From IMG/VR virus record IMGVR_UViG_3300008111_000060: a DNA stretch of 64,000 bases, one strand, 5' to 3'. Both the position numbers and the translations under genes were made by a program. The stretch's first letter is position 1. Each line of letters begins with the position of its first letter. The DNA comes from an uncultured virus (IMG/VR IMGVR_UViG_3300008111_000060) (taxonomy: Duplodnaviria > Heunggongvirae > Uroviricota > Caudoviricetes). The notes below the pieces were generated by a model. That model was not told the origin of the DNA. It worked only from the letters and a program-made list of their open reading frames with translations, and did not search any database. This document shows, piece by piece, positions 26,386-61,000 of this stretch.

Positions 26386-26387
26386 TT

Positions 26388-26516
26388 ATGAAAAAAGCAG
26401 TTAAAAAGAATGCTACAGCTACAGTTGTAAAAAAACCAACAGGGAAAGTTGGTGGTACAAGTACACCTCCTAAAGGTGCAGTGCCTAAAAAGAAGATGGG
26501 CGGCAAAGCTTGCTAA
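26388..26516 (+). CDS. Small basic protein, 42 aa (MKKAVKKNAT...KKMGGKAC)
   Basis: Manually translated; tightly packed. Confidence 0.65.
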   Translation: MKKAVKKNATATVVKKPTGKVGGTSTPPKGAVPKKKMGGKAC

Positions 26517-26519
26517 GCA

Positions 26520-26669: not shown

Positions 26670-26670
26670 T

Positions 26671-26919: not shown

Positions 26920-26922
26920 AAC

Positions 26923-27799: not shown

Positions 27800-28180
27800 A
27801 TGGAAAAGCCAAGATTATTACAAAGAACAAATGCAGAATACAGTGCCCCTGCTAGTGGTGGATTAGATACTATGGTAAGTGCTTGCGTATCTGAGCTTAT
27901 GAATGCAGCAACATCTATTCATAAGTTACACCTTAAAGTAACTGGTGCAGGATCATATGCTGCACACAAAGCTTTGAATGAATTATATGATGCTTTACCA
28001 GGACATGCTGATGATTTAGCAGAAGCATTTCAAGGAGCTTCAGAAAAGTTATTGGAATACAAAGATGTAGCTCCAAGACAATTAGGATCAGTAGCTGATG
28101 CTATTGCTTATCTTAGAGAGATGACTCAGATGGTATCTAACTTACAAGCTAAGATGCCTTATAGTGAAATAGTAAATGAC
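27800..28180 (+). CDS. Ferritin/Dps-like (DUF5856-like) protein; C-terminus apparently deleted
   Basis: HKLHL...SYAAHKALNELYD...ADDLAEAFQG; after EIVND the frame runs through an A-rich leader and overlaps the next gene out of frame to 28438. Confidence 0.65.
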
Positions 28181-28209
28181 TTTATTTATAAACTCAAAAA
28201 CAAAAAACA

Positions 28210-42600: not shown

Positions 42601-44784
42601 ACATCTTCTTGTTACTATGTTGGTTATAAACAAAGAATAAGAAATCAATATGGTCAAGTAAATACTGTTAAACAAGTACCAGTAACTACATGTTACCAAA
42701 GAAGAAGAAATATATCAAAATCAGATGTTCTTTTTAATGGTGATGTTTATATTGGTAGACACACTGAAAAAAATACTTTTTTCTTTTTCTATGAATGGTT
42801 ATTTGAACAACCAGATTTTTTTGAGTTTAATTATCTAGAACATAGAATGGTAGGTTTTCCAAGATATTGGTTAGATACTACTAGTTATGAGATAACAGAT
42901 TTTACAGGTGGATTGTTTGGATTAATCACAACATTAAATCTTAACTCTGCATCATTAGGAGGAATACTTCCTTCAGGATTATATAATCTTGATGAAAGTA
43001 CTTGCGCTTTTGCATCAGGTTTAGATGAATTAAACTTTGCTGTTAAGTATCAATATTTCTACTTGTTCTCATCTGGCGTAAGAGACTTCTTTGTAGAATC
43101 AGAAATCAATGTTGATTTTAGAGATTATGGTGAATTAGATACCGAGTATTTCTACCCGATTAGAGAGATTAAAGATTTATTTAATACTAGTATTATTAAA
43201 TCAGGAAACTTCTTTAAATATGATAGAAGCTTTACAATGTCAAAAAACTTTATAGCTTATGTATCATGGGGAGATTGTCAAGAGAGATCTTATGATCCAC
43301 AATTATCAGAGACATGTTATGTATATGATCCTAATGAAATAATATATTCTTTACCAGCTAATCAAGAAGCTGATAAAGATTACTGGTTATATTTCTTAGC
43401 AAACAACTATGAGAAATTTTTATCGCGACCTAGTTGTATAAAACCTATTGATAAAAGCGGAGCTGTAATATTTTTTGAAAACGGTTCTCCTCTAATCTTT
43501 AGAGGATTAGATCAATTACAAACTACATCTGGTACAGCTTTAACTATAGGTGACGGTGCATTGTTTTCACAGCCTCGTCAAAATGTAGTAAATGCTGATA
43601 GGCCATACGAATATGGTTCTTGTCAAGATAGATTGAGTGTTATTACTACACCGGTTGGAACATATTGGATATCACAAAGTTTAGGAAAAGTTTTTGCTTT
43701 AGTTGATGGTATCCAGGAACTATCCAATGCTAATATGAAATGGTGGTTTGCTGAATACTTACCTTATAAGTTAATTAAAGATTTTCCAAACTTTGCTTTA
43801 ACAGAAAACCCTTTTATTGGTATAGGTTGTCAATCGATTTATGATAATGAGAACCAAATATTATATTTTACTAAAAAGGATTATAAATTAAGGACTGATT
43901 TACCTGCGAGTACAACAATTACTTATAAGGAGAAGAACATCTTTAATATTGTTGTAGATGGTCAAATATTAGCTACTACTACTTTACAAGATCCACAATA
44001 TTTTGAAGATGCTTCTTGGACAGTTAGTTATGATCCAAAGCTTCAAGCTTTTATATCATATCATGATTGGCATCCAGATCTTCTTCTACCTGGTAAAAAT
44101 ACTTTCATGAGTATTAAAAATATCAATGCTAATCCTAATGTTGAGAATGGTATTTGGATACATAATGAAAGAGTAGATTTATATTGTAACTACTATGGCA
44201 TAGATTATCCTTTTGAGATAGAGTGGAATGTGCATACTGGTCCAATAGTAAACTCTTTAAGAAGTGTTGAGTATATTATGGAAGTATTTATCTATGCAGA
44301 AAATCGCTATGATAGATACCATGTTTTAGATTTCAACTTTGATGAAGCTACTATTTATAATACAGAACAGTGCTCTGGATTACTTAAGTTAAACTTAACA
44401 CCTAAGAATAACTCAGCTAAAATATTACAATATCCTCAAGTAGGAACAAATAATATTCAGATACTTTATTCTAAGGAAGAAAACAAATATCGCTTTAATC
44501 AGTTTTGGGATATTACAGATAGCCGCGGCGAGTTTCCTATTAATTCTCCGTATCCACCTACTACAATGACAGGTACATTTGCTGAAAGATTAATATTTAA
44601 TACACAAGCTAATGGCTATGTAAGAATACTAAATCCTAATAATTTAAATTACAATAAAAATCAATTGCAAAGAAAAAAGTTTAGACATTATACTAACTTA
44701 GTACTTTTGCGTAGATTAGTATGCGGTAATAAAAAAATGATGGTAATGTTAGCTTCAAATAAAAATCTTTATTCTCCTAGATAA
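39640..44784 (+). CDS. Tail stabilisation / muzzle (nozzle) protein, 1714 aa
   Basis: GNEPGN, VYWDDGLNPSR, GYMRDEVYAF, VRHHKFP and WTVSYD...FISYHDW motifs typical of crAss-like tail stabilisation proteins. Confidence 0.8.
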   Translation: MAKDNFSQNTSNSETRRFDKSLVEDVNDFHLPENSWTQARNAISNSVTGDLGKLGNEPGNRFCTKAPYPIIGAIHLNADKWAIFSTDNTNSEIGIYEEKVCSYTKVVNASCLNFNQANLIKGVSRYTSNCSFRVYWDDGLNPSRVLDLNDVPWVQICLDENQIDVNNAPANYDPVGCITCTDTEELDCERTRLAMRMIPPCYNIQKGTNGGTLANGMYIVTMAYTIDGERVSDYFPLSNQQPLYNHTNVAGSIDIIIGDTDDNFDEVEVVVIYIVAQQTVARRVGIYSTKQKRISIDIINPEWPVVPIENIPFRTTIYNQSDAMYNVNDYLIRVGPKSKFDFNYQPLANQIVTKWSAAEYPADYYKNGGSNTGYMRDEVYAFFIRWIYDTGDKSASYHIPGRPSLPGEKNLAVTDSLSDETAGPNPFNYKWLVENTAYPDPSFVPSQLPDGGWEVAAGYMGYWESTEEYPDNKADVWNASAHCWSSLSPSPPCPVVSAPSIPYSGTANGLSDYDLCGEKVRHHKFPDNYINFTNPASNHYASGSAYFQGPVIRIMGVKFENILPPVDNNGVAIPNIVGYEILRGTRTGNRSVLFKGIINNMRVYTLESGSNRTGLFANYPYNDLRPDPFLSNTRTSNVPCFFGLFNGGENGYDPQIAYRKDIFSFHSPDTNYDNPYLSGKELKVYSNIYGTTTGKFEYSEKHPKHKIISNSALIVSFLVGLVLTSKKLNGDKKITYTTPHTSGFIDGGVEPVTGGLYGALNPAIYAWYNVADAAQSLMAGLTQTANTVYNSGLTNIVQNVGGLSGTTTFLQAVRLANVIPSVAGAPFLNGDPFVIELGDGLYDSFSAVGLVPPFSAIQYLYNLSENAQIVLDLIKAFLTPRQYALKYNSHCFYSASAPPPSAGNRRKSIINQQYIGPSYVDFGTSFRINNLYRANYVVLQTDTNITNPSIVDDTRKRVYDVPALAEGPDNFFNVPRVKDPVAKEFNTTSSCYYVGYKQRIRNQYGQVNTVKQVPVTTCYQRRRNISKSDVLFNGDVYIGRHTEKNTFFFFYEWLFEQPDFFEFNYLEHRMVGFPRYWLDTTSYEITDFTGGLFGLITTLNLNSASLGGILPSGLYNLDESTCAFASGLDELNFAVKYQYFYLFSSGVRDFFVESEINVDFRDYGELDTEYFYPIREIKDLFNTSIIKSGNFFKYDRSFTMSKNFIAYVSWGDCQERSYDPQLSETCYVYDPNEIIYSLPANQEADKDYWLYFLANNYEKFLSRPSCIKPIDKSGAVIFFENGSPLIFRGLDQLQTTSGTALTIGDGALFSQPRQNVVNADRPYEYGSCQDRLSVITTPVGTYWISQSLGKVFALVDGIQELSNANMKWWFAEYLPYKLIKDFPNFALTENPFIGIGCQSIYDNENQILYFTKKDYKLRTDLPASTTITYKEKNIFNIVVDGQILATTTLQDPQYFEDASWTVSYDPKLQAFISYHDWHPDLLLPGKNTFMSIKNINANPNVENGIWIHNERVDLYCNYYGIDYPFEIEWNVHTGPIVNSLRSVEYIMEVFIYAENRYDRYHVLDFNFDEATIYNTEQCSGLLKLNLTPKNNSAKILQYPQVGTNNIQILYSKEENKYRFNQFWDITDSRGEFPINSPYPPTTMTGTFAERLIFNTQANGYVRILNPNNLNYNKNQLQRKKFRHYTNLVLLRRLVCGNKKMMVMLASNKNLYSPR

Positions 44785-47700
44785 TGAAAAAGAAAAATAC
44801 AGGCTGGTTAGATAAATATGAGGATGGTGGTAAAACAATAATGCATCATCCTAAGAAAACAGTATTTAATCCTAATACTGGAGAATATACTTTACCAGAA
44901 GTGGTAATCAAACCAAAAAAATATACTGATGCTGAAGCAGATGCTACAAGTAAAAAACCATGGGGTGAAATGGCATATAAAGAAAGAGTTGCTTATTTAG
45001 ATGCTAAAGAAAAAAATAAAAATAAAACTATAACAAAAGCTCAAGCTGAAACATGGGCTAAAGAAGCAGAAGCTAAATCTAGAGAACAAGCTAAAAAAGA
45101 ATATGCTAAAGAATATGTTCAGCAGAGCATGCAAGATTTTTATAAGCATCCTATAGCTATGGCTCCAGGAATGATATTTGGTTCTACAATAGCTCCAGCT
45201 CTTGGTGCAATAGCTTCTTTACCACAAGCTTATGAATCAGGTAAAAATATTGCACAAGGTGATGGTTCTTTTATGGATTATGCTAATCTTGCTCTAGCAG
45301 CTGCTGGTGCTAAAGGAGCTATACCAAAGATTGCAAACCCTGTTAAATCATATGTGCAAGATGTAGCATATGCTAGTAAAGTAGCAGGTAAACCTAAGTT
45401 ACCAACTTATACAAATGCTATAAGATGGCAACCAGATGTATTTCCTAATAGTCTTGTTGAAGCAGGAAAAACACTTTCACCTGAGCAACAAGCTTTAACT
45501 GGTAGTTGGTATAGTTACGCAGATAGACCTGATCAACTAGGGTTTTATATGAGTACAAGACCGGGTTCTGGTAATATAAATACTTTGCGTTTATCAGAAA
45601 GAGAAATTGCTGAGCTAGAAGGAGCAATGCCAGATTATGCAAAGGGTATGTCGGGTAAAGCCGAGAGTGTCCCTACATCCGATAGTTATATGAAAGGAGA
45701 GCTAATAGTTCCTAAAAATATAAGAACCAAGGCAAAACAAATAAGATTTGATGTAAATCCTTCCGAGTATATTCCACAATCTAAAGGTGTTTATCCTGGA
45801 ATGTTTTTTGGCGCAGATGAATATGCGCAATCGCTCACAGGAAGACATGTTCAAGATATTATAAATTCTCAATATCCTAATTTAATGAAAATTCCTAGAA
45901 AGTATTTTCCATTTGAATACGGAGGTTGGTTACAAAAATATGATAGAGGAGGTGATCCTGAGACACCGCCAAAAACTAGTCTTTCACCAGAAGCTTTTGA
46001 ACAGCAATACATAGATAATCTTAAAAGAAGATTAGATCTTGCTAATCTTATAGAAAAAGAAAAAAAAGCAGTTGCTGCTATAAGAGCTAACTTTGTTCCT
46101 ACAGCAAAAAAAATTGATGAAGCAGATGATAAAATACTTAGAGAACAAGGTATACCTTATCAGCATTTTTTGAAAATGAGAGCTGCTAAAAATCCTGAAG
46201 AGTTACGCAAATTGATTAATACAGCTCCTCAAGAATTAAAATATGTATTACCAGATAATGGAAATTTTAATATTGCTCAATGGGATAAAAAAACTAATTC
46301 TTGGAATCCTCAGCAAACTCCAGCTAGAGAATTATATTGTGCAGGTGAAACTTGTACAGTGCTTAGAAAAGCAGGTGCTAAAGATATTCCTATAATTGGA
46401 GGCAATGTTACTTTTATAGGCAAAGTTCAAAAAGGTGAATTACCATTTGCTAAAGTTAATCCTGATGAAGCAGAACCTGGAGATCTAGCCGTTGTACATG
46501 GATTAGCTCCAGCAGTATACACAGATGAAAATTCTCCTATTGTAAACAGAGGTCATCATATGACTTTATTAGCAAAAAAACCTATATTAGATGCTAAAAA
46601 AAATGCTCAAAAAATAGAAGCTTATAATGCAGTTGAAGGAAACAGATTATTTTATGGGTTATCAGAAAGAACAGCTGGCGGAGATGATGATGAACACTAT
46701 ACATTTTATAGATATACAGGAGCTGTACCAAAATATGAAAAAGAGTTAGCGGATATACAAGAATATTTTAAAAACACAAGATTACCAGATATGCAACCAA
46801 TTCAATCAAGATTACCACAAGCACCTGAGCCTGAATTAAAAAGAGAAGGAGGCTGGCTAGATAAGTATGATAATAAATATAAAAGAGGTGGAAGTAAATC
46901 CAAATCTAAATTTACATCAAAGAATATTCAATCTAGTATAAATACATTGTTTGCTAGAAACTATGATTTGTTTGGACCTAGTGGTAAAAAATATTATAAT
47001 CCACTTTCTAAATTTGATGATGGTGGACAACCGGTATTTGATCCTACTACAGGGATGTATACTTTACCAGAAGTAACTATTGAAGCTGAAGCACCTGAGT
47101 GGAGTGATTTATCTCAAGAATATGAAAGAACAAATCCTTTACAAGCTTTTGTAAGAGGAAGAAAAGAAGATGTTATAAGACAATCTCCAAGAGGTTTAAA
47201 TAAACTTTTTGGTGTAAATCCTTCTCAGTTTGCATCTAGTATAGAAAACAATATAGCAAATGAATATGACTATCTTAAGAATACCGCTATCATAGAAGGA
47301 ATAGCTAAGAGTCGTGGAATTGATTTATCAGAAAGAGGAGACTGGGTAGATCAATTATCAAACAAAGAAAAAGAAATATTAGCTAATTCAAAATATGAAA
47401 CTCTTCTTCAACCAAGTTTTTATGCAAAGAGTTTAGCAGGTTTACAAGAACTAGCTGGTTATATGCCGGGTACTTTACCTAATAAATATGCACCATTAAC
47501 TCCAGGTTTAACAAAAAGAGAACAAGAAGAAATACACAATGAAAAGTTTTTAGGAGTTCCTACTGGAGCACTTAATGCTTTTCAATTTATGGATGTCCCT
47601 GGCCAAGCTATTGCTAATGTTCTAAAAAATAGAGGTTTATCTACAGGGTCAGATTACAGAGATATACCTGGTGTATTATCAGGTAAATCTATGGGTAATG

Positions 47701-49580
47701 TAAATCCACTAGATGCTGCGCTTATGAATCCTTTTAATACTGTAGGAGCACCAGAAGCTGTAGTTGGATTAGGTAGAGGTACCGTAGCTTTAGGTAAAGG
47801 TGTATATCAACTTGGTAAAAAAGGTTATGAAGAAGCTCCAAGAATCGGGAGATTTTTAAAACAAGGGTTTAATAAATTTGAAAATCTTGTTGGTCAAGGT
47901 TTTGATAATCTTAGCAGACAAGAGAATGCTATGTATCTAGATGACCTATATAGAAGAGGAATAATAGATAATCCGAATCCTATTGTAGATCCGTGGGATA
48001 CTTATGTTCCATCATATAGCGAGAATTATGATCCTAGCAAGAATTATACTCCACCATATAGCGAGGATTATACTCCACCATATGGCAATGAGCCATATCC
48101 TTGGGATGCAGAACCTTTTGTAACCCCTGCTGATATTGAAGGTGCTATAGAACAACATCTAAGACAAAGAAGAGCTTCAAATGTTGAACCATCTTCAAAT
48201 CAGCTTCCTCCTCCTCCTTCAGAAATAATATTACCAGAAGCAAATCGATTTAGAGAAACTTATAATTCAATATTAGGTAATCTTAGAAATCAATTTAGAA
48301 GATCAGGAGAAATTTTATCTGCAGATGATATTGCTTCTCGTTTTGCTAGAGAAAATAGTGTTAATGATTTGTATTCTTCTTCACCAGCTAGTAGTAGAAA
48401 CAATGAATTATCAGAATCTACTATTAATAGTTTACTTGGATACAATCAACCAGCACAAGCAGCAGTTGAAGTTATAGATCCTATTACTTTAAGAAGACAA
48501 CTTGTAGAAGCAATACCTAATAAAAAAGTAAAAGATATTACAGATAAAGTTTTACAAACAAATAAAAGATCTACAGGTAGTATTTCTTATTACGATGTTT
48601 TACAAAATGATAGAGGTGGTGTTAATCCTGAAATACGAGATTTTGACCAACACTTTATGCCTACAAATCAATTAGATTCTAGAATAGAAGATTTACAAAC
48701 TAGTATAAATGAGTTAGAAAAATTAATGAATGAGTATAATAATCCAATTCTTACTACTAAACAAGAAAATATTCGCGAACAGCAAAAATTTATTATTAAT
48801 AAATTACAACAAGAGTTAGAAGATGCTAAATCTACTAAATGGTTAAGAACAGAAAGAGTTGAAGAATTAAAAGCACAAGGATTAGATCCTGATGATCAAT
48901 TATCTATAGTGACAATTGGAGGTTCTTCTTATTTTGCTCCAAAACAACTTGTAGATAAAAATGGAAAAATACTTGGAACCGTAAATCTTGGTGGTAATAC
49001 TATTAGTTCTACAGGTCTTGCTTATAATCAACATGGTTATGCTTTTGGAAAACAATTTGCAAATGGTGCTAAAAATTATACTAAAGAAGAAGCAAGAGAT
49101 GTTTTAGCTCGTAGAGCTTATGATGAGTTGCTTATGACTCATCCAAGTGCTGCTTCTGATCCAGATAGATTAAAAGGTTTTGAACAAGCTGCTTATGAAA
49201 TAGCTGATGGTAAAATAAAAGAAATAGAATATAATAATAATAATAGTTTTGGTTTAACTTTATATAGAGGTGTTCATCATGGTATAAAAGATACTAGAGG
49301 AAACCTTAGATCTTATAAGCATTTTGCAGATACAGATTTACCAAATAAAATAACCGGATTTTTAGAAAAAGAGAAGAGAGCTAAAAGAGCATGGAATTCT
49401 TGGGATAGACAAGGCTATGTAAAAAATAATCCTATAGCAGGTGAAGATCCTATAGAAACTGGATACTACGAGTTTATTAAAAAGTTTGGTGGATCTTTTG
49501 ATGCTGTAAGATATCTTAAAGAGCACTCAAGAAAAATGAATAAAGGTGGTTCAACTCAAGGATGGTTAGATAACTATTAA
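44784..49580 (+). CDS. Modular cargo protein with an NlpC/P60-like hydrolase and other effector-like domains separated by GWLDKY/xxGG motifs
   Basis: YCAG...EPGDL...GHHM triad-like pattern; four GWL(D/Q)(K/N)Y motifs; two VF.P.TG.YTLPEV.I motifs. Confidence 0.75.
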   Translation: MKKKNTGWLDKYEDGGKTIMHHPKKTVFNPNTGEYTLPEVVIKPKKYTDAEADATSKKPWGEMAYKERVAYLDAKEKNKNKTITKAQAETWAKEAEAKSREQAKKEYAKEYVQQSMQDFYKHPIAMAPGMIFGSTIAPALGAIASLPQAYESGKNIAQGDGSFMDYANLALAAAGAKGAIPKIANPVKSYVQDVAYASKVAGKPKLPTYTNAIRWQPDVFPNSLVEAGKTLSPEQQALTGSWYSYADRPDQLGFYMSTRPGSGNINTLRLSEREIAELEGAMPDYAKGMSGKAESVPTSDSYMKGELIVPKNIRTKAKQIRFDVNPSEYIPQSKGVYPGMFFGADEYAQSLTGRHVQDIINSQYPNLMKIPRKYFPFEYGGWLQKYDRGGDPETPPKTSLSPEAFEQQYIDNLKRRLDLANLIEKEKKAVAAIRANFVPTAKKIDEADDKILREQGIPYQHFLKMRAAKNPEELRKLINTAPQELKYVLPDNGNFNIAQWDKKTNSWNPQQTPARELYCAGETCTVLRKAGAKDIPIIGGNVTFIGKVQKGELPFAKVNPDEAEPGDLAVVHGLAPAVYTDENSPIVNRGHHMTLLAKKPILDAKKNAQKIEAYNAVEGNRLFYGLSERTAGGDDDEHYTFYRYTGAVPKYEKELADIQEYFKNTRLPDMQPIQSRLPQAPEPELKREGGWLDKYDNKYKRGGSKSKSKFTSKNIQSSINTLFARNYDLFGPSGKKYYNPLSKFDDGGQPVFDPTTGMYTLPEVTIEAEAPEWSDLSQEYERTNPLQAFVRGRKEDVIRQSPRGLNKLFGVNPSQFASSIENNIANEYDYLKNTAIIEGIAKSRGIDLSERGDWVDQLSNKEKEILANSKYETLLQPSFYAKSLAGLQELAGYMPGTLPNKYAPLTPGLTKREQEEIHNEKFLGVPTGALNAFQFMDVPGQAIANVLKNRGLSTGSDYRDIPGVLSGKSMGNVNPLDAALMNPFNTVGAPEAVVGLGRGTVALGKGVYQLGKKGYEEAPRIGRFLKQGFNKFENLVGQGFDNLSRQENAMYLDDLYRRGIIDNPNPIVDPWDTYVPSYSENYDPSKNYTPPYSEDYTPPYGNEPYPWDAEPFVTPADIEGAIEQHLRQRRASNVEPSSNQLPPPPSEIILPEANRFRETYNSILGNLRNQFRRSGEILSADDIASRFARENSVNDLYSSSPASSRNNELSESTINSLLGYNQPAQAAVEVIDPITLRRQLVEAIPNKKVKDITDKVLQTNKRSTGSISYYDVLQNDRGGVNPEIRDFDQHFMPTNQLDSRIEDLQTSINELEKLMNEYNNPILTTKQENIREQQKFIINKLQQELEDAKSTKWLRTERVEELKAQGLDPDDQLSIVTIGGSSYFAPKQLVDKNGKILGTVNLGGNTISSTGLAYNQHGYAFGKQFANGAKNYTKEEARDVLARRAYDELLMTHPSAASDPDRLKGFEQAAYEIADGKIKEIEYNNNNSFGLTLYRGVHHGIKDTRGNLRSYKHFADTDLPNKITGFLEKEKRAKRAWNSWDRQGYVKNNPIAGEDPIETGYYEFIKKFGGSFDAVRYLKEHSRKMNKGGSTQGWLDNY

Positions 49581-49638: not shown

Positions 49639-52113
49639 ATGACAGCAGCAGAAAGATTAGCTTATGTAGGTTTACCAGATACTCCTGAAGGCAGAGAAAC
49701 ATTCTATGATATGTTTGATGATGAATCAAAGTGGGATGATTTTTATTCTCAAGAAATGGCTAGAGGTGGAACAACCTCTACATACATGTTTCCTCAAGCT
49801 TTTTACCAGGATGGCGGAGCTACTGATGGCATAGCTTATCCTCAACAACCTACTTCACAGTATATGTTTGAAGGAGCTTCTTGGTATCCTAGTTATAAAG
49901 AACATGGTGGTATTGCTTATCCACAGCAACCTACTGCTGATGTATTTTTTAGTGCAAATCCTTGGCAACCCCACTATGAAGAAGGTGGTCAGTATGGAGG
50001 ATCTGCTTCACCACTAGGCTATGGTCAGATGCCACCTGTTATGGATTTTGGAGGTATGTCTAAAGGAGATAAGAAAACATTTCTTAAAAGCTTTGTAGAC
50101 AACTACATGAAATATGCTTATGGAGGTAATGCTTCTCAGATGGAAGCTGATACAGATCCTATTAACTATCCTGAAAAGATTAGAAATAACTTTGTTAGTA
50201 AGTTACAAAAAAATGCTACTATATCAAGAGCAGAAGATGAAGGTAAGGCTATCTTAAATAATCTAATGCAAAACAACCAAGTTGAGCCAATGGCTTTTAA
50301 CTATGGTGGAGGTATGGATTATGATTGGGATTCTATGAGAAATCCTAATGCTCAAGCTCAAGCTGATATGTATAATAACATGGCAGATGAATATGAAAAT
50401 CAAGCTATGAATTCTACACAACAAGCTGGTCAAAATTTATTTGATATTGGCAAACAGTTTATGAATAATAGAAATGCTATCAATGCTCAGACAGAAGCTG
50501 CAAAAAACTTTGCTGCTTCCACAATGACAGGAGCTGAAGCAGCTCGTGGTGGTAGCTTTAATGTACCTAGATTTGATCCAGGTGGAGGATTTAGTAAAAA
50601 TATAGGACCTGATCCAGGTAACTTATTTAAAAAATCAACACCTATATTTTTCCCTAATGCGGGTGCTCCTGCAGCTCCAGCAGCAAAGGTTGATCCATAT
50701 GCTGGTTTAAATCAAGCTCAAATACTAAGAAAACAATTAGAAGAAAAATATCCTACTAGTAATACTGGTCAACAAAATCAGTCATATGATTTAGCACAAC
50801 TACTAGGTCAATACTTTGGAACAAATCCTAATCAATCAGGAAGATATGTTTTTGCTCCAACCTTTGGTGATCCTTTTGATTATAAAGGTAGAAACCAATA
50901 TGGTAAGTTTAGATTAAGAAGCTATGGTCCAGGAATATTTAATCCAAATGCTGGTAATGTTTATGGAACTGCTTCACAAAATACAGGTAATTTTAATTTT
51001 GGTAATATGTCTAAGATGGATCCTAATCAATTAGCTGCTGCTCAACAGTATCTTAAAGATAAAGGAATTAGTCTTGAATATTCACAACAAAATAGAAAGT
51101 TTTTTAATAAACTTTTAGGACCAAAAAGTTTTAGTTTAAAATATAATATAGGTAATTCAAGTACTGGAACTACTCAACCTGGAGCTGCACCAACTACTCC
51201 TGTTGCCCCAGCTGAAGCAAAAAAACCAGGATTCTTTGATAGGATGAAAGAGAAGAATCAAGCTAGAAAAGCTACTAAAGAAGCTGCTAGATATGAAGAG
51301 TTTAAAAAGAATAATCCAGTTTATCCTAATGAAAAAACACCAACAGGTGCACCGGTTATATCACCATTAGATCAATCTAATGCGTTGCCAAATGCTAATA
51401 GTAATTCAAATTGGTCAATGATGGAAAAACCTGGATTAGTATTAGATCCTAATTCACCTGGCTCAAGTGGACCTGTTATGTCTCCAATGCAAAGAGCTAA
51501 TGCGTTACCAGCAGGTACACAAAGCGTTCCTTACACACCTAGACCTACAATAAATCCTAATGATTCTACACCAACGGGTCCTGTAATGGAACCTCTTGAT
51601 CAATCTGGTGCTGTATTTAATTATGGTGGTTATTACTTACCAAAAGCTGTAGGTGGATTTGATAATAGTAATTTAATTACTAAAGATGTAGGATTTCAGT
51701 ATGATCAAAATCTTAATCCTTTTACAGGTGTAGGTCAAAAAGTTATGAAATCTATGCCTAGTATAATGCAAGCAACAACAAATTTAGTTAATTATCATAG
51801 AATAGGAAAAGGATTAGAAGATCAAGCTTTTGCTAAAACATCTGCTGATGCTAATTACTTTGCTGATAATCGTGTTAATAAAGGATCCAAAATGATTGAT
51901 CCTTATAATGCGGCAAGTTTAGATGATCCATATCAAACAGGTTTCCAATTACATGATCAAGGAAGAGCTTTCCAAAATAGCAACATAAAGGATAGCAGAT
52001 ATGGTGGAAACTTATATCCTGATGGCGGCCAAGTAGGAGATATAATGTATTTGTCTGATGAAGATGTAGCAAGATTTATGGCAGAAGGTGGAACAATAGA
52101 ATTTTTAGATTAA
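49639..52113 (+). CDS. Low-complexity cargo protein rich in xxGG motifs
   Basis: Gly/Asn/Gln/Met-rich with internal repeats; position among the ejected-protein genes. Confidence 0.75.
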   Translation: MTAAERLAYVGLPDTPEGRETFYDMFDDESKWDDFYSQEMARGGTTSTYMFPQAFYQDGGATDGIAYPQQPTSQYMFEGASWYPSYKEHGGIAYPQQPTADVFFSANPWQPHYEEGGQYGGSASPLGYGQMPPVMDFGGMSKGDKKTFLKSFVDNYMKYAYGGNASQMEADTDPINYPEKIRNNFVSKLQKNATISRAEDEGKAILNNLMQNNQVEPMAFNYGGGMDYDWDSMRNPNAQAQADMYNNMADEYENQAMNSTQQAGQNLFDIGKQFMNNRNAINAQTEAAKNFAASTMTGAEAARGGSFNVPRFDPGGGFSKNIGPDPGNLFKKSTPIFFPNAGAPAAPAAKVDPYAGLNQAQILRKQLEEKYPTSNTGQQNQSYDLAQLLGQYFGTNPNQSGRYVFAPTFGDPFDYKGRNQYGKFRLRSYGPGIFNPNAGNVYGTASQNTGNFNFGNMSKMDPNQLAAAQQYLKDKGISLEYSQQNRKFFNKLLGPKSFSLKYNIGNSSTGTTQPGAAPTTPVAPAEAKKPGFFDRMKEKNQARKATKEAARYEEFKKNNPVYPNEKTPTGAPVISPLDQSNALPNANSNSNWSMMEKPGLVLDPNSPGSSGPVMSPMQRANALPAGTQSVPYTPRPTINPNDSTPTGPVMEPLDQSGAVFNYGGYYLPKAVGGFDNSNLITKDVGFQYDQNLNPFTGVGQKVMKSMPSIMQATTNLVNYHRIGKGLEDQAFAKTSADANYFADNRVNKGSKMIDPYNAASLDDPYQTGFQLHDQGRAFQNSNIKDSRYGGNLYPDGGQVGDIMYLSDEDVARFMAEGGTIEFLD

Positions 52114-52114
52114 T

Positions 52115-54922
52115 ATGCTAAGAAAAGTAAAAATAACAGGACTTCCAAAAGCAGCTAAAGGTGGACCTAGAGTTAACCCTGCTATGGGCTTTAATGCTAA
52201 TACATTAAATTGGCCAGCTATGCCGGGTCAGATGTCCGATAAACCAATAATGGTTAAAAAGAGTATTGGTCCAACAAAAGGTAAACCTGATCTAGAAGCT
52301 GAGAAAGGTGAGACTATTGTTGCTGATTATATGAATGGGGGTATTCCTCAGCAATATATTATTGGTGGCAAAAGACACTCACAAGGTGGTACTAATTTAT
52401 CTGTGCCTAAAAATTCTCCTGCTTTTATTTTTTCAGATACACCAGCTCTAAAAATAAAAGATGAAGAAGTTCTTGCTATGTTTAACAAGAAGCTTAAGAA
52501 TGGTGGATTAACTCCGGCAGAAATTGCTAAGCAATATAATATCAATGATTACTATGCAATGCTTCTTGATCCAGATTCAGATGATCTTCAAAGAAAAACT
52601 GCAGAAGCTATGATTGCTAAATACAATCTTAAGCTAGGTGGTTTAGCTTTATATCAAGAATCTATGAAAGGATTTAAAGAGGGTGGGATACCACCGATAT
52701 CTCAATCCTATGTAGAGATGACTGGTATAGATCCTCAATCGATTATGCCGCCGGAACCAACACAAGCTCAACAAGAGAATCCTTATGGTGACATGGCTAA
52801 ATATGGAAAGAGTATTAATAAGTTTATTCCACAAGCTCGTAGAGGAAACAGAGGAGATAATCCTCTTCTACAAGCTTTGAATAATCTTATGCCAGGGAGA
52901 ACCGCGGATCCATTTCCTATGTTCGGAAATAGAAGACAACCTGTAGGATACAGATTTAATCCTCAAGCAAATATAATTGAAGTTGTAAACAGTAATGGAG
53001 AAGTAATTGGATACGGTACCAGATCAAATCAAAAATATCGTGATCCTTATAGTGGATGGGACGGAACAGGATCTATGCCATTTATTACATCTTCTAATGC
53101 TCCACAAGAATGGAAAGATAGAAATGGATTTGGTGACAACTCTTCTACAAGTACTCAAACTACAACAACAACTACTAAAAAGAAAAAGGTTAAGAAACAA
53201 GTTGTACCTGCAGATGCTCAAATAATTAAACGTAGTGATTATGCTACAGATGCAGAATACGAAGCTGCTAGAGATAAAGCTTTTGCAGATGCTGGTGGTA
53301 AGAAAACCATTTATACTCAAGATAAAAATGGTAGATACTATACAGTAGAAGAAAAAGATTATGCTGGTTCAAATGCTGATGAAAACATTGAGATGATTAA
53401 AAGCGCTTTTAAAAACCCTAAAGTAGCTGAAGAATTTAAAGCAAATATTTTAAAAGGTTTTGATCAAAAAAATAAAGATGGTAAATCAGTTGTTAGGCAT
53501 GCTGGTCTTAAAAAAGCAGATGTTGAAAAGATGACTGCTGATGAATTAGCTGATCAGTTTATAGAATTTAATACTAGAAATATCAAAGGTATAGAACAGC
53601 TTAGTAAAGAGTTAGGCATTAAACCTGGTGATATGAGTCAAGGAAGTGTATTAAAATTTTTTAATAATAAAAGTGGTAAAAAGGTTGAAAATTGTGCTTT
53701 TGATGCTCAAGGTAATCGTAACAGTAAAGAAGATCAACAGCGTTGTGCAAGTTTAAAATATAAAAGCTTAGAAGATCTTTATGAAAAAACAGGTACTCCT
53801 ATGCCTAAAGATGATAAGTCTAAAGCTTTACAACAACTTACATATATTGGTTATAATAACCTTTTAAAGGCCAGAGATAACAAAGAGATTAAAGATGATG
53901 AAATCAATAAGAGTTTATCACCTTTTATTATTGGACAAAAAGGTGTAGGCGATGAAAAGATTGCTGGTAAATATGCTGGTTCTATATCGGATGCTGATGC
54001 TGTTTATACTAATACCACGGCTGGAGAATATGCAGCTATTACCGGTAAAAAAAGAAATGAGAAAGAGTTAGGTGAAACAGAAACAGAAGAGGATGAAACA
54101 ACTACTGATGTTAATAATGTAAACACAGATGCTAACATGCCTTATGGTTTTGGTTACAAGCCAAAGAAAGAATATTTTAGACAGGATGAAAATAGAATGG
54201 CTTTTGATTTAGGTAATCTATTAACAGCTAGAAAGTATATGCCTTGGCAAGCAAGTTTAAATCCATCTCTTATTAAAAATGAATATTATAGTCCAGAAAG
54301 AGAATTAGCAGCTAATGCAGAGCAGAGTAATATTATGGCTAATGTATTAGCTGGATTTACAGGTAGAAAGAAATTCTCATCTGCTGCTTCTCAGTTATCT
54401 GGGGCAGGAGCTAAGAATGCTGCGGATATCTTAGGTAGATACAATAACCTTAATGTTGGTGTAGCAAATAGATCTGCTGAGCAAAATGCAGATATATTAA
54501 ACAGATTTAATATGTTAAATGCTGATTTAGCTACCAAGCTTTTTGATAAGAATACTATTGGTAATCAGCAATATAGAAATGCTAAAATAGCATATGGAGA
54601 TAACTTTGTTACATCTTTAAATAATGCTATAACCAATGCTTCTAATGCTTACAATTTAAATCAAATGAATCCTCAGTTTAATATCAGTCCTCGCAGAGGA
54701 GGTGACATGTTTTTTACAGGTGTACCAAAACCTTGGAATAGAACTGGATATACAACTGAAGATTTGACTACAGCATTTAATACTGCTAAAGGTAAACTAC
54801 CTGGTGTTAAAGATGAAGTTATTTGGAACATTGTTAAGAACCAAAAAGGAATTGGAACAGAAGCACCAGATATGAGTTTTCTTTCACAAGCAAATAATGT
54901 AATAAGCAATTCAGGAGTATAA
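52115..54922 (+). CDS. crAss-like cargo protein
   Basis: EAEKGE...GGKRHSQGG motif; Asn/Ala-rich helical C-terminus. Confidence 0.75.
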   Translation: MLRKVKITGLPKAAKGGPRVNPAMGFNANTLNWPAMPGQMSDKPIMVKKSIGPTKGKPDLEAEKGETIVADYMNGGIPQQYIIGGKRHSQGGTNLSVPKNSPAFIFSDTPALKIKDEEVLAMFNKKLKNGGLTPAEIAKQYNINDYYAMLLDPDSDDLQRKTAEAMIAKYNLKLGGLALYQESMKGFKEGGIPPISQSYVEMTGIDPQSIMPPEPTQAQQENPYGDMAKYGKSINKFIPQARRGNRGDNPLLQALNNLMPGRTADPFPMFGNRRQPVGYRFNPQANIIEVVNSNGEVIGYGTRSNQKYRDPYSGWDGTGSMPFITSSNAPQEWKDRNGFGDNSSTSTQTTTTTTKKKKVKKQVVPADAQIIKRSDYATDAEYEAARDKAFADAGGKKTIYTQDKNGRYYTVEEKDYAGSNADENIEMIKSAFKNPKVAEEFKANILKGFDQKNKDGKSVVRHAGLKKADVEKMTADELADQFIEFNTRNIKGIEQLSKELGIKPGDMSQGSVLKFFNNKSGKKVENCAFDAQGNRNSKEDQQRCASLKYKSLEDLYEKTGTPMPKDDKSKALQQLTYIGYNNLLKARDNKEIKDDEINKSLSPFIIGQKGVGDEKIAGKYAGSISDADAVYTNTTAGEYAAITGKKRNEKELGETETEEDETTTDVNNVNTDANMPYGFGYKPKKEYFRQDENRMAFDLGNLLTARKYMPWQASLNPSLIKNEYYSPERELAANAEQSNIMANVLAGFTGRKKFSSAASQLSGAGAKNAADILGRYNNLNVGVANRSAEQNADILNRFNMLNADLATKLFDKNTIGNQQYRNAKIAYGDNFVTSLNNAITNASNAYNLNQMNPQFNISPRRGGDMFFTGVPKPWNRTGYTTEDLTTAFNTAKGKLPGVKDEVIWNIVKNQKGIGTEAPDMSFLSQANNVISNSGV

Positions 54923-54988: not shown

Positions 54989-57900
54989 ATGGCTACTTAT
55001 ATCCCTGGAATAACGGATTATATACCTCAAGCACAACCATTTAGACCCGACTTTAATATGTTGGGCAATATGTTGCAGACTAAACAAAGTAGATATGATG
55101 CTAATCATAAGCAACTTAGTTCTATTTATAGTACTCTTTTAAATTCTCCTTTAATGAGAGATGAGAATATTTCTAAAAGAGATATGTTTTTTAAATCAGT
55201 TGATCAATCTATACAAAGAATAGCTGGATTAGATTTATCATTAGATCAAAATGTTGAAGCTGCAAAATCTATATTCAAAGGTTTTTATGAAGATAAAGAT
55301 CTTATAAAGGATATGACTTGGACTAAAAACTATTACAATCAAAAAGAAAGATCACAGGCAATGCGTAATTGTATTAAGCCTGATGAGTGTGGTGGTTCTT
55401 GGTGGGAAGGTGGAGATAAGTATTTAGATTATAAAGCTCAAGAATTTAAAAATGCTACTAAAGAAGAAGCTTTAGGTTTTGAAAATGTAAATTATGTAGC
55501 TGCTCAAGATTTTCAAGACAAGGCTATGAAAGCTGCAAAAGATGCAGGCTTCAAAGTTGTATATGATGATGTAAAAGGTGATTGGATTGTTAAGACTACC
55601 AATGGCACTGAGATGGTAAAACCATTATCAGAATTCTATGTATCCAAGTTTGGTGAAGAACCTGGTATGATGGAGTATCTTAAAGCTAATTCATATGTAA
55701 ATAGAAAAGATTGGGTAGCATCTAACTTGTCTAACTATCAAAGTGAAGACGAAGCTAACATGGCTTATATTCAAGAGTACTATAACCAAGTAGAGCAATC
55801 GATTAATGATGGTAAAAAAGAAGCTCAAACAAATGCTGATGTTGCTAATCAAAAAAGTAAAGATATAGATCAGCATGTTAAAACTACTGGTGTATTACCA
55901 CAATCTGATGATTGGCTTAGTCAGTGGGGAGATACTAAAGCTGAAGTTGAAGATACTGAGAAAAATGTAAAAGTATATGATGAGGCTGCTAATTCCATGA
56001 AGGTTTTTAAAAACAATATTGGAAACATGAAAGCTTATTTATCCTACTTCGATAACTCAGCTGCTATTGATTTGCTAAAAAGAAAATCTTTATTAGCTGC
56101 ATCAGAGTATGCAAACCTTACCACAGAAAGAGAGTTTAGAGAAAATCCTATAGCAAAAGCTGCTAGAGAACATGCTTGGGATTTAGAAAAAACAAGAATG
56201 AAGGAGGGTTATATTGATCCTAGAACAAATGAATATGTTCCTGGTACAGATGTCAGAGGCCAAATGATGATGAAAGATTATGAGGCTAAAAAGAAAAAAG
56301 AAGAAGAAGCAGCAATAGCAGCAGCTGAAAAAGCAATAAAGATTAATCCGCAAATTGTTGATAAAGGAAACACAGCAACACCGGTAATAGATCAGGCTCA
56401 AGCTGTTAGACTTAATAAAGAACAAAGTGTAAAAAGTTTATTAGATGTTCAGTCTGCTATGAATTCTAATATAAGCAATAGTGTTATTGCTATGCAAGAT
56501 GCTTTGGCTTCAGATTCTTCTCAAAGAACATCTATGTTAAATGTTTTAAAAGATGTATTAGGACCTAATACAAATATAAATCCTATAAAACTATTAGATA
56601 AAGATCCAGAAGAATTTGAAAAATTAAAAGGCTTAAGCTTAACTCAAAAAGATATAATCAATACTAAGTTTAAAAAATATACAGATGCTTCTACAGCAGA
56701 TGGTCAAGTTTATTCTAAATGGTTTGATGCAAATAGAGCAGCTTTAACACAAGATGCTGCTAACTATAATAATGCTTTAGCAGATTATAAAGCTATTACA
56801 GCTCATGTAGAAAATGGTAGACTTGCTGCAAAAAAAGAATATGAAGGTTTCATTAATAATGAAATAGCTAGCAAAAAGCTTGATGGAGAAGACCTTATGG
56901 AAAGAACCATTATCAAAGAAGCTTTACAAAATTCTGTTTCAATGGGATTTGCTGGTGGTGATGTAGATGCTTTTGCAAGAGAATGGGCAGCAAAAAATCA
57001 AAACAAATTTCAAGGAGGATCTGTTAAAAAAGTAGGAGAGCAAGATGTTATTGTTAATAAATATAAAGTTAAAAATCCTATATTAAAAACATTAACTAAG
57101 CAAGATGAAGCTTACGAGTTTGCAAAAGAAGCTTTAGAAAAAGGTAAAGCTTCCTTTGATGGATATGAAATGCTTAAAACACCAGCTTGGGATGCTATGG
57201 ATCCAAACATGCCAAAGGGTACAAATGCTAAAGCTACTAAAACATATGTAGCAAATGTAACACCTTGGGATATTAGTAATCCTCAATCTTCTCAAGATGC
57301 TCAAGATTTAATAGAATTACTTACAGCAACTAAGAAAGCTATTATAGAAAATAATGCTGTAGTTAGACCTGAGAATGATTTCTCATTAGATGAAGAGTAT
57401 ACTTATAAAGATAGCGACAAAGGAGCTATTGCTAAACTTAATCAGTATATAGCTGATTTAGAATCTGGTGATAAAGAAAAAATTAAAAATATTACTTCCG
57501 AGTTTCAGTTTTCTAGAATATCGGGTAATAGATATGGTAAATCATATATCTATCTTAATCCTAATGAAAGTTGGAATCAGATTTATAGAACTGGTGAAGA
57601 GAAGAAGTCACCGCTGTTTACTACAAATGAAGATCAAGAACTGTTAGATAATATATCAAAACCAATTGCTGTAGAGTTACCAAGTAGTTATGTTGCTAAT
57701 ACAAGATTGTATAAAACAACATCTCCTAGCATGATTGATTTTAGATTAAAAACAGATAAACAAGTTGTTGATAATGTTCCTTTAGGAGGTAAAAGTATAA
57801 TTACTAAAGATGGTGATATGTATATTTTGCAAAAGGAATTTATACGCGTTAATAATGATGGGACAAAATCTGTTGAAACAGTAACAACTAAAGAGCCTAT

Positions 57901-58039
57901 TGCAATGTTTAATGCAGACTTGTATCAACAAAAAATTATAAGAGATATGTCTAATCTTTCAGCTATAAACAAAAAAAGATTAGATGATATTTCTAAAATA
58001 AAAGGAGTAAAGGATCCTCAACAACTTTTTAATAAATAA
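54989..58039 (+). CDS. Large helical cargo/ejection protein, 1016 aa
   Basis: MATYIPGITDYIP..QPFRPDF N-terminus; position before the giant genes. Confidence 0.75.
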   Translation: MATYIPGITDYIPQAQPFRPDFNMLGNMLQTKQSRYDANHKQLSSIYSTLLNSPLMRDENISKRDMFFKSVDQSIQRIAGLDLSLDQNVEAAKSIFKGFYEDKDLIKDMTWTKNYYNQKERSQAMRNCIKPDECGGSWWEGGDKYLDYKAQEFKNATKEEALGFENVNYVAAQDFQDKAMKAAKDAGFKVVYDDVKGDWIVKTTNGTEMVKPLSEFYVSKFGEEPGMMEYLKANSYVNRKDWVASNLSNYQSEDEANMAYIQEYYNQVEQSINDGKKEAQTNADVANQKSKDIDQHVKTTGVLPQSDDWLSQWGDTKAEVEDTEKNVKVYDEAANSMKVFKNNIGNMKAYLSYFDNSAAIDLLKRKSLLAASEYANLTTEREFRENPIAKAAREHAWDLEKTRMKEGYIDPRTNEYVPGTDVRGQMMMKDYEAKKKKEEEAAIAAAEKAIKINPQIVDKGNTATPVIDQAQAVRLNKEQSVKSLLDVQSAMNSNISNSVIAMQDALASDSSQRTSMLNVLKDVLGPNTNINPIKLLDKDPEEFEKLKGLSLTQKDIINTKFKKYTDASTADGQVYSKWFDANRAALTQDAANYNNALADYKAITAHVENGRLAAKKEYEGFINNEIASKKLDGEDLMERTIIKEALQNSVSMGFAGGDVDAFAREWAAKNQNKFQGGSVKKVGEQDVIVNKYKVKNPILKTLTKQDEAYEFAKEALEKGKASFDGYEMLKTPAWDAMDPNMPKGTNAKATKTYVANVTPWDISNPQSSQDAQDLIELLTATKKAIIENNAVVRPENDFSLDEEYTYKDSDKGAIAKLNQYIADLESGDKEKIKNITSEFQFSRISGNRYGKSYIYLNPNESWNQIYRTGEEKKSPLFTTNEDQELLDNISKPIAVELPSSYVANTRLYKTTSPSMIDFRLKTDKQVVDNVPLGGKSIITKDGDMYILQKEFIRVNNDGTKSVETVTTKEPIAMFNADLYQQKIIRDMSNLSAINKKRLDDISKIKGVKDPQQLFNK

Positions 58040-58045
58040 TTTATT

Positions 58046-61000
58046 ATGGCAGAAACAGATAACTTAGGTGTAGATGCTAATCAATCTATACCTAGTCTAA
58101 ATGAATTACAATCCGAGCAGATGTCGGGCTTAGTTAATCCTTATTCTATAGAAGTTAGTAATTTAAATTTACCAGAACCTCCTAAGCCATATCCTGTAAA
58201 TATTACTAGTAGTAATCTTATTCCTACACAATCAGGTGATTCAGATTATAATAAATTATTTAGCAACATTACTCAATCTTATCAAGATACTAAATGGGCC
58301 AATGATGTAGCAAAGTATGCAAAAGAAGAATCTTACAATGCAGATTATGATGGAGCTAATTTTGAAAGATATTATAAAGTAGGTAGCGTTTTTAAAGATA
58401 GAGGATTTTCTCCATATAGAGATAATGAAGAAATATATAATAAAGAAGCTACATGGTTTGATTATTATAAAAGAAGTTTGGGCGCTATGGGCGATGGGTT
58501 TGTATCTGGATTTACAGATATGCTACCTTGGAATTCTTGGTCTTCTGATTTAACAGATGTTGAAGCAGCAAGAAATATGGAAAGAGCTCATGCTATTGGA
58601 GCAGATACAAGAGGAGGATTTGGAAGCTTTGTAAATAACATGACAGTTGACTTTGGTTACACTGCTGGTATATTAGGAGAGTTTGCTGCAGAAGAAATTG
58701 CTATGTGGGCAGGTGCTGCTTTTTTAGCACCAGAATCTGGAGGAACATCTCTTGCTACAGCTAGTGCAGAATCAGCTTCTCAATTTGCAAAGTTGAAAAA
58801 ATTAATGGATTTAAAAACTTATGGCAAAGCTCTTAGTAAATCTTATGATTGGGTAAGAAATGCTGATAAGATGAAAGATATTTATTCTTTAGCTAAATCT
58901 GGTGCAAAAGGTTTAGGTAGAGGATTAACTGCAGCTGCTGAAGGACTTATACCAGAAACATTTAAATATGCTGATGAACTAGCTGACTTAGGTAAAAAAG
59001 GAGAACTTGTTTTTGACTTAGCTAAAACAGCAAAAGGTTTTGGTGCACTATATAGAGATGCTAGAAGAGTAACAGCTGCTACATCAGAATCTGCAATGGA
59101 AGGTGGTAGTGCTGAGTTAGCTGTAAGAGATAGACTTGCTGATGAGATATACGCACAGGGTAAAACTCCTACAGTAAAAGATTGGGAAAGAATATATGCA
59201 GAAGCAGCTAATGCTGGTAGGGAAACTTTTTGGTGGAACTTGCCGGTATTATTTGCATCTAATGCTATTGTATTTGATAAAGCATTCAAAGGCTTTAAAC
59301 CAATGGAAGCTTTTAGAGAAGAACTTACACAAGGTATTAAAGGTAAACTTACTTTTAATCAAGCTTGGAAACAAGCTAATCAAAAAGCTTGGAAGAGGAT
59401 TGATACAGATTTTATGTCTACTCTAAAATCTTTAACAAAGCCAGAGACATATAGACCTAAGAATCTTTTAAAAAATGGTTTAAACAAATTTGTAAATTAT
59501 ACTAAAGCAAATTTTGCTGAAGGTTTTCAAGAAGTATATCAGGATGCGGTTCAAAAGACTATGACTGATTACTACGCTAATCAATTTATTAATCCTGCTA
59601 TTGCTGGATCAAGATCTACATGGGGAGCTTTTGCTGATAATGCTGGGATGCTTAATCCTTTTGGAGAAAGTAGAGATACTTTCTTATCTGGTTTCTTGAT
59701 GGGTTCTATGGCTCATATACCACAGGCTGCTGTATTTGAATGGGCTCCAAAAAAGTTTTGGCAAATAACTGATAAAGAAGGATATGATAGACATCAACTT
59801 GATTTAGAAAGACATACTAATTCTGTTGTAGATGCTTTAAATGCGGCTACTATGGATGAAAGATTTTTTGATGCTATTACTGTCAATGGAGCAATACAGT
59901 TTAATAATAAGAAAGAAGCTGAAGAAGCTAACATGGCTGGTGATAAGAGAAACTTCTATACCATTACAGATGATGCTATTGGTAATCACTTGCACACACT
60001 TATTTCTACAGGGAAATTAAATCTTATAAAAGATCAGCTTGAAGATTATAAACAATTAACCCCAGAAGAATTACAAGAAGCTTTTGGTCCTATTGATAAA
60101 TCACAAGGAGATCCTGAAACTTTTTATCAGAATAAAATAGATAACATGCTTCATAAACTAGATCTAGTTCAGAAGCATACTGAAGAAATAGAAAAGAGAT
60201 TTCCTAATCCTTTTAATCCTGGAAAATATAATAAGCAAACAAATCCAGAAGCTTTTCAATCAGAGCTTTTTAAACAAAAATCTTTTGATGAAGCTAAGAA
60301 AGCAGCTATCATGTCTTCTTATCATTTTGATAGATCTGTAGAAAGATTAAAAAGTGTTACTGAAAATTTAATTAAGTCTCAACCGTTAGGTGAAGCTAAT
60401 GCTACAGACTTTAGTAACATTGTAAATAGAAACAATATTGATTCTGCTATTTTAGCTCTTGAATCCGAAGTAGAGATTTATTCAAAGGGTGATGCCGATG
60501 CTCAGAAAAAAGCAGCAAGCGCTTCAGAAACTTTAGAAGATTTAAAAGCAGTAAGAGATGGTATAATGGGTATCCAACTTGCAAGACAAATGAAAAGCAA
60601 GGAAGATGCTGGAGTAGATACTGATAAAGTTGATGAATTAAAAAGATCATCTAAGATTAAATCAGGAACAAAAGTTTTAAATAAAAAAGGTGAAGCTGTT
60701 GTTGTAGATAAAACTAAAGGTGGATACGCTTATGATAAGGCTGGTAATCGTATAGGTAAAACTAAAAATCTTACAGCCGTTGAAGAAGCTGAGGAAGATG
60801 ATTTCTTTGATGTGGCATCGAAGGAATTGTATAGAGCATATGATAGATATTTAAAAAATATTGCTAGAAAAAGAGGGGGAATTGTTCAACAAAAAAATAT
60901 AGACAAGTCTTTCCAAGATTATAAAGATCTATTCCTACTAGGAGTTGATATGGAAGAGTATGCTGATTATGTAGACACTTTACATAATCCAACTAAATTC

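Follow-up and report, generated by a model that had tools for sequence, protein, structure and literature searches.

In a 64,000-nucleotide stretch of an uncultured virus (IMG/VR record IMGVR_UViG_3300008111_000060; hereafter the window), a short motif, [FYM]xxGG, was found at high density in the cargo genes that follow the muzzle gene of a crAss-like phage structural module. This module encodes a terminase and a portal protein (PHROG) together with a crAss capsid protein, two ring proteins and a muzzle protein, and the Pfam families Crass_capsid, CrAss_Ring_1, CrAss_Ring_2 and crAss_MUZ all scored over their cut-offs. The muzzle gene (39640..44784, plus strand, as are the genes following it; crAss_MUZ E-value 2.7e-34) encodes a protein whose closest cultured record is that of Leptolyngbya phage Lbo-JY46 (25.5% identity), followed by those of Cellulophaga phages phi4:1 and phi17:2. 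Downstream lie five large genes without a Pfam or PHROG family, including two putative accessory cargo polyprotein genes, p44784 (44784..49580; 1598 residues) and p49639 (49639..52113; 824 residues), a probable C1 cargo protein gene, p52115 (52115..54922; 935 residues), a C2-like cargo gene, p54989 (start at 54989), and a large gene of the RNA polymerase (RNAP)-associated cargo type, p58046, with an HELIH sequence at 61697. The last two, which together span 54989..63658, were labelled from position. p52115 occupies the place of the C1/gp45 family between the muzzle and C2, and precedes the C2-like gene at the same place in related loci.

Against 3000 composition-preserving shuffles per protein, p49639 contains 11 [FYMA]xxGG (1.99 expected) and 10 [FYM]xxGG (1.23 expected; both p<=0.0003), and the motif remains significant when its 17 GG pairs are held fixed (p=5e-5). 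[FYM]xxGG was also in excess in p44784 (6 vs 0.92 expected, p 0.001) and p52115 (3 vs 0.73 expected, p 0.035), while no enrichment was observed in the muzzle protein (2 vs 0.96) or in the window's major capsid, portal and scaffold-position proteins, and the count is zero in p54989 and p58046, which thus serve as motif-free internal controls. All 13 pentapeptides listed for p49639 in a preliminary description of this sequence are present, most of them fitting its [FYMA] class and KEHGG and SRYGG falling outside it, as are AAKGG, FKEGG, AKYGK (residue 228) and ARRGN (residue 241) in p52115. Its claim that the motif runs across consecutive cargo genes stands for p49639 and p52115, but it overlooked p44784 and does not extend to p54989 or p58046. 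Most p49639 sites are retained in homologues of 41-43% identity. MAEGG (residues 814-818 of p49639) sits in a separate C-terminal module, where GG is often QGY or AGY in relatives, and FKEGG of p52115 is not conserved, its first G being an insertion absent in 96% of 100 aligned sequences.

Because the residue class had been picked on the window itself, an out-of-sample test was run in 48 related loci, obtained from 80 IMG/VR loci after removal of a near-identical one and dereplication at 80% domain identity. [FYM]xxGG was observed 299 times against 51.2 expected (standard deviation 7) in the gene immediately 5' of C1, 136 against 30.6 in C1 and 127 against 26.8 in the earlier post-muzzle genes. 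The muzzle (32/27.8), C2-like (21/21.9) and 58046-like (24/29.1) controls were not enriched; pre-muzzle genes gave 2/3.1 and unclassified genes 7/2.5. Cargo proteins of the relatives are thus enriched over other proteins beyond the compositional background, by 4.4-5.8-fold, with the enrichment confined to the muzzle-to-C2 genes, and the earlier suggestion that the motif marks proteins of the capsid interior in general fails on the C2-like and RNAP-associated cargo, which lack it. From these loci the logo (P)-x-[FYMK]-[QKA]-x-G-G was obtained, in which positions beyond GG are barely informative, and the positional preference at -3 and -2 (Kullback-Leibler divergence 0.67 and 0.57) exceeds that in the controls (0.09 and 0.14). 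C1 of nine Steigviridae records, crAss001 among them, holds 35 [FYM]xxGG vs 9.0 expected, with the muzzle (2/7.1), C2 (2/2.6) and gp47 (10/6.7) at background, and a thinner signal was found in eight more distant records (phi17:2 gp41, 4 vs 0.6; csAssE-Sib, 4 vs 0.5; phi14:2 gp81, 2 vs 0.3). These data indicate that the motif is a real feature and not a composition artefact.

The same motif was found in tape-measure proteins. A DNA pattern for HxxGGxxxE[AV]ExGE, of which the upstream motif is not part, retrieved 109 distinct proteins, and 90 of these have a GG 8-9 residues ahead of the His, with F (39), Y (27), A (11), K (6) or M (5) at -3 in 88 of the 90. A stricter motif pattern matched 60 of the 109 proteins vs none of 53 control windows. 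PHROG called tape measure in 24 of 28 long proteins scanned from this set. The other proteins are stand-alone genes of 75-160 residues consisting only of a basic leader, the motif and the His/Glu domain; examples such as L094, L101, L105, L112, L131 and L137 would be ideal minimal constructs for protease activity. Lambda gpH has FATGG (733) and YATGG (778), in line with the preliminary description, and they flank a similar stretch (HHalign to the tape-measure profile, 29.5%). The tape-measure profile matched the C1-type domain at 94.4% (E-value 8.8e-8), a partly circular result, since the residues involved also supplied the pattern used for selecting the set; in p52115, the motif precedes the Glu loop by 45 residues. 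The profile did not match Steigviridae C1 (HHalign probability 0.8). In a structure model of the tape-measure domain, the predicted local distance difference test score (pLDDT) climbs from 55 to 86 at the motif. PDB sequence searches were otherwise unhelpful, one returning only a tape measure, 8zdo. The DT57C authors report, in the part of their article consulted, no conserved motif among the resolved tape-measure C-terminal fragments (PMC10713586), and these fragments lie downstream of the motif.

Two anchors place a possible cut within the motif. T5 pb2 is reported to be cut after R1127 (PMC10038345), which is the R of VPR↓AEGG (↓ marking the cut); residues 1128-1219 have a calculated mass of 9701.7 Da, and an intact mass of 9702 is reported for the C-fragment from undigested tails (PMC11937500), while [AQEK]xGG begins at only 3 of the 1219 pb2 positions. 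In crAss001 gp45, the segments reported from cryo-electron microscopy (cryo-EM) are 214-245 and the portal-bound 425-552 (PMC10172136), and the latter begins exactly at N424↓A425, the A of N↓AFGG, in the same register as the T5 site. Each segment falls within one predicted fragment (207-260 and 425-559), and the gp45 mass spectrometry peptides named in the portion of text consulted (79-101, 181-190, 275-300 and 307-320) cross none of eight predicted cuts. In lambda gpH, a cut at F733↓ATGG would yield 79.6 and 12.5 kDa, and products of about 78 and 14 kDa are reported (PMC12617516). A cut after GG was rejected, since the T5 and gp45 anchors both place the chain end two residues ahead of GG.

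The protein encoded by p52115 is probably a homologue of crAss001 C1 (gp45; Pfam crAss_CARG1; PDB 7QOG chain M), judged from several lines of sequence and model comparison that are singly weak and only jointly make it probable. Its putative portal-bound-type domain (52244..52714, plus strand), a candidate protease or motif reader, contains E61, E63 and E66 (52295-52312) and H88 (52364-52390), which, with G85, G91, G92 and S107, are invariant in 100 aligned sequences; the N-terminal domain is kept in 214 proteins, and the whole-protein profile reached 2148 at E<=0.001. The structure model is confident for residues 51-210 (pLDDT > 85). Profile-profile comparison with Steigviridae C1 gave an HHalign probability of 85.6 (E-value 5.6e-6, 67 columns), and in the ESM Atlas the domain was linked to a CARG1 cluster (0.92). 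The structural match to 7qog_M was weak (VIA Z 4.9, 99 residues aligned, root-mean-square deviation 4.7, rank 35), and Foldseek against the gp45 fold gave an E-value of 0.81. Pfam CARG1 (PF25725) did not match the domain at E<=10, a PDB sequence search with it gave no match, and single-sequence HHalign and hidden Markov model comparison with gp45 were unsuccessful. The missing CARG1 match may be accounted for by the Glu loop and His loop, whose order is swapped relative to gp45. Like gp45, p52115 belongs to a block that follows the muzzle, and the two domains have in common the His loop, the Glu loop and FSD, T.A..AK and QE elements; the motif also occurs in gp45 (8 [FYMA]xxGG). Unlike gp45, the window's block consists of three genes, with the domain N-terminal. 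The EAEKGE/HSQGG domain of p52115 is probably the C1 portal-bound-type domain. csAssE-Sib (L243:33254-36094), which we take to be a member of the epsilon group, bears a C1-type domain (E-value 1.5e-10). Bayfield et al. state, in the sections consulted, that this group has no gp45 homologue, and those sections do not mention a motif, cleavage or a protease for gp45 (PMC10172136).

Motif sites coincide with module boundaries. The scoring motif sites of p44784 separate payload modules at residues about 13-377, 387-686/699 and 745-1566, and the protein resembles a series of fused units with GWL[DQ][KN]Y at the end of each; four such sequences lie at 44802, 45924, 46851 and 49560 (plus strand). p49639 ends in a candidate packaging signal of about 25 residues, tag A (YLSDEDV..F...GG.IEFLD type; 52036..52110, plus strand), and p52115 begins with a basic leader, KV[KR]I..LP (52115..52153, plus strand), followed by the site PKA↓AKGG, in which P11, A13 and G16 are conserved in 86, 67 and 89% of sequences. 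[KR][VYF][KR]I occurs inside the first 14 residues of 59 of 122 complete proteins, including 40 C1 proteins. In the 48 loci, a short terminal module ends 63 of 84 accessory proteins (47 of EEI..G.IEYL type, 11 WLDKY and 5 KVKI..LP), and the bodies of the 47 proteins ending in tag A are mostly not alignable. A scoring site lies within 30 residues upstream of 57 of the 63 terminal tags (random-position background, 21%), with the caveat that the tag patterns were written after viewing the same proteins and the site profile was trained on them. Tag A also occurs in cultured Lbo-JY46, which has the same three-gene block and C1 leader; the recorded host of this phage is a cyanobacterium, which is unusual given that the group is described as one that infects Bacteroidota.

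The muzzle-to-C1 genes of the window's clade encode 180 to 2360 residues, and Pfam matches were found in 8 of 35 accessory proteins scanned, including PG_binding, SET, lysozyme, ART-PolyVal, LysM and YkuD. SET domains (three proteins) and one ART-PolyVal occur among the motif-delimited payloads of the accessory cargo of loci L038, L041, L052 and L066, and may be regarded as candidate injected host-modifying enzymes. Within the C1 proteins of Steigviridae, gains, duplications and relocations of small basic modules and of enzyme inserts fall exactly between motifs. A near-identical zincin module, whose alignment begins at a GG, is present in gp42 of phi17:2 and gp81 of phi14:2, two distant Cellulophaga phages (L242:26485-28704 and L244:19104-20885), which is a sign of possible recent cargo-module exchange. 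A recurring N-terminal domain of no known family, DP.GQW..PG..T.IP...ITM, was seen in many accessory cargo proteins (e.g. L005:6351 and L018:4302) and is absent from those of the window.

Based on these observations, we propose that the motif is probably a virion-maturation cleavage site, X↓[AQKE]xGG, serving to separate payloads from packaging tags. Since the motif is the reported T5 tape-measure cut motif, the cargo proteins are probably polyproteins chopped during assembly. The site would be read mainly on its prime side, as (P)-x-[F/Y/M/K/A/R]↓[A/Q/K/E]-x-G-G, and the muzzle-to-C2 genes would encode variable payloads (cell-wall enzymes, SET, ADP-ribosyltransferase, zincin and small basic modules) linked by sites to short terminal tags. 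The tags would bring the precursors to the portal region of the procapsid, and cutting would drop them, leaving small, separately ejectable pieces that fit the narrow tail, while the C1 domain, its N-terminus now formed by the motif, would remain on the portal wing. In p49639, the predicted cuts (first base of P1', plus strand) lie near 49759, 49807, 49900, 49978, 50044 and 50116 and, further on, near 50299, 50542, 50575, 51619, 51997 and 52018. We lean slightly towards reading the terminal modules as packaging tags. The preliminary description had offered protease sites or docking tags as alternatives; the reported T5 R↓AEGG cut and the gp45 segment start, in register with each other, favour the former, and docking tags probably exist but look like the other sequences (EEI..G.IEYL, WLDKY, KVKI..LP) that the motif parts from the payload.

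If cleavage takes place, the Glu/His domain of C1 and the tape measures may itself be the protease, which we suggest tentatively. It is favoured because a small domain with a G-E glutamate follows the motif in T5 and lambda as well as in the tape-measure set and C1, and because lambda gpH is reportedly cut before head joining, with site and catalyst stated to be unknown in the portion consulted (PMC12617516). On the other side, the Suoliviridae sequence inspected lacks the His, no alignment was obtained between the T5 domain and the tape-measure profile (HHalign probability 0.1), and the window's own motif (residues 12-28, pLDDT < 50) is not docked in the model. It is possible, though doubtful, that the domain is an unrecognised self-processing peptidase, acting on X↓AxGG in cis in tape measures (T5 pb2, lambda gpH) and in trans on the crassvirus portal, where its 12 copies would cut swappable tagged polyproteins in a form of plug-in effector loading. 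Alternatively, the cutting enzyme could be a host protease or a further phage gene product. The p58046 zincin, which the preliminary description had put forward as a partner of the motif, was rejected as a general protease, with HExxH in only 2 of 44 partly truncated homologues, and would be unnecessary for T5 and lambda.

Several points weigh against cleavage at the motif. Cutting of crAss proteins is deduced from sequence, and p49639 sites lying 4-30 residues apart are hard to see as yielding useful products. The T5 site is disputed: trypsin, too, would cut at R1127, and an older matrix-assisted laser desorption/ionization (MALDI) study had placed the site at V1148 (PMC11937520); moreover, the T5 site scores -0.48 under the window-clade profile. 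The cryo-EM model of gp45 may begin at the motif merely because this is the first ordered element, and Bayfield et al. read gp45 as intact, threading from tail to head (PMC10172136). Motif density is low in Suoliviridae (one site each in 3/3), and C1 of Fpv1 and of Lbo-JY46 has no strict site, only degenerate forms. No significant peptidase match was found for the C1/tape-measure domain (Foldseek, VIA), the tape-measure model having no VIA match at Z>=2. For 13 crAss001 gel bands, we also compared the MALDI peak lists (PMC6235969 source data) afresh with 27 proteins. This fingerprinting identified portal, muzzle, gp47, gp49, gp50, fibres, capsid and gp36; gp45 (90.8 kDa) was above chance in 0/13 bands, which is weak evidence, compatible with cutting, because the motif-free gp46 was likewise found in 0/13. 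In the same data, gp23 peptides of band 9 matched only residues 147-602 of 689, and gp34 and gp44 occurred together in bands 1-2 (the highest in mass by inference), suggesting a sodium dodecyl sulfate-resistant tail-tip complex.

Other explanations of the motif were considered. It could be an uncleaved docking peptide, many copies of which bind the C1 domain, the portal or the scaffold and gather intact cargo near the portal: both the portal-bound gp45 segment, which begins with it, and the model of the tape-measure domain show the motif as ordered, closely spaced copies in p49639 would give avidity, and the motif is restricted to the C1 block. We consider this unlikely, as the reported T5 intact mass sets a chain end exactly inside the motif, the separate terminal modules just beyond a motif are better tag candidates, and the window's N-terminal motif is undocked on its own domain. 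A role as glycine hinges or unfolding points, easing the threading of long cargo through the tail with no enzyme reading the motifs, is very unlikely. Intact threading of gp45, as proposed (PMC10172136), and a mild enrichment of GG itself (1.25-1.7x in the 48 loci) would suit such hinges, but neither the strict preference at -3 and -2 nor the lack of the motif in the C2-like and RNAP-associated proteins, which also traverse the tail, would be expected of them.

Modules are swapped at the motifs, which would be explained if these were remnants of duplications or recombination junctions in the DNA and played no part in the protein; repeats do exist, with four copies of the 19-nt WLDKY unit and a duplication of the 49824/49905 stretch. 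Yet no single family among the 20 largest direct-repeat families listed accounts for the majority of motif sites, and motifs stay where their flanks diverge and recur in unrelated tape measures, making this extremely unlikely. A chance outcome of glycine-rich, low-complexity proteins has practically no probability: p49639 is 10% glycine and the residue class was picked after viewing the data, but the class, once fixed on the window, also gives an excess out of sample (299 vs 51) with the near-identical locus removed.

Cleavage at the motif would have several relatives among known systems. As in the C-terminal processing of tape measures (T5 pb2, lambda gpH), the motif seems to stand ahead of a small G-E domain, the T5 site is in the register of the crAss motif and the lambda fragment sizes are compatible; tape measures, in contrast, have one or two sites near the C-terminus and serve as tail rulers, whereas the podovirus-type cargo of the window has 3-13 per protein. 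As reported for T4 gp21 (capsid targeting sequence) and the processing by SPN3US gp245 and in phiKZ, internal proteins with targeting propeptides would be trimmed at repeated short motifs during assembly (PMC10052503). The T4 and phiKZ prohead proteases cut after A-X-E, on the non-prime side, whereas the enriched motif here, aromatic-x-x-G-G, does not fit that substrate type and consists mostly of prime-side residues including GG, and no prohead protease was found among 27 window proteins scanned with Pfam and PHROG. Adenovirus, African swine fever virus and poxvirus proteases cut core polyproteins at Gly-Gly-containing motifs, after or within the glycines, unlike the T5 and gp45 registers, which put the cut before GG. 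Polyvalent proteins with a zincin MPTase likewise join unrelated effector domains in one virion-delivered chain that is predicted to be processed, and the account of them names, in the part consulted, no cleavage motif (Iyer et al. 2017, PMC5512222). ART-PolyVal and HExxH domains are present among the payloads here, but most motif-bearing proteins lack HExxH (C1, 0/48). Polyprotein processing in crAss phages has earlier been suggested, as far as the consulted text goes, for the RNAP block alone, with a zincin as the enzyme (bioRxiv 2020.03.07.982082), and this block lacks the motif. No published description of the motif was found in a search that reached few subscription papers or bioRxiv supplements.

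Elsewhere in the window, five tiny lysine-rich open reading frames (ORFs), one with DUF6321, lie 3' of the capsid region (26188-27087) in a cluster that varies in related loci. The preliminary description had assigned the motif to the small proteins at 26188-26516. This applies to the small basic protein p26388 (26388..26516, plus strand), which has the C-terminal in-register site PKK↓KMGG (score 5.6) and may belong to the same motif system, but not to YKGG/YTGG of p26188, a threefold-repeat protein in which the aromatic residue is one place nearer GG, out of register; the repeat is retained in 5/5 related loci examined. In related loci, several small basic proteins there have a C-terminal in-register motif and a lysine tail, resembling the end of gp45. 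The tiny lysine-rich proteins may be internal DNA-binding peptides processed likewise. A ferritin/Dps-like ORF (DUF5856; 27800-28438) overlaps the next gene (28210-29784) by 229 bases in another frame; its end may reflect a frameshift or assembly error, because its tail has no family match.

For lambda gpH, the analysis gives an exact predicted site, F733↓A734 and possibly Y778↓A779, on a question that a 2025 paper, in the part consulted, lists as open (PMC12617516), and this prediction and that for crAss001 gp45 are checkable on existing data. The motif also gives a rule for parsing the large unannotated cargo genes into payload domains. If cleavage is true, the crassvirus ejection model would be revised, the gp45 tail helix and portal-bound domain being separate products, and one motif with its domain would link podovirus-type ejection proteins with siphovirus tape measures.

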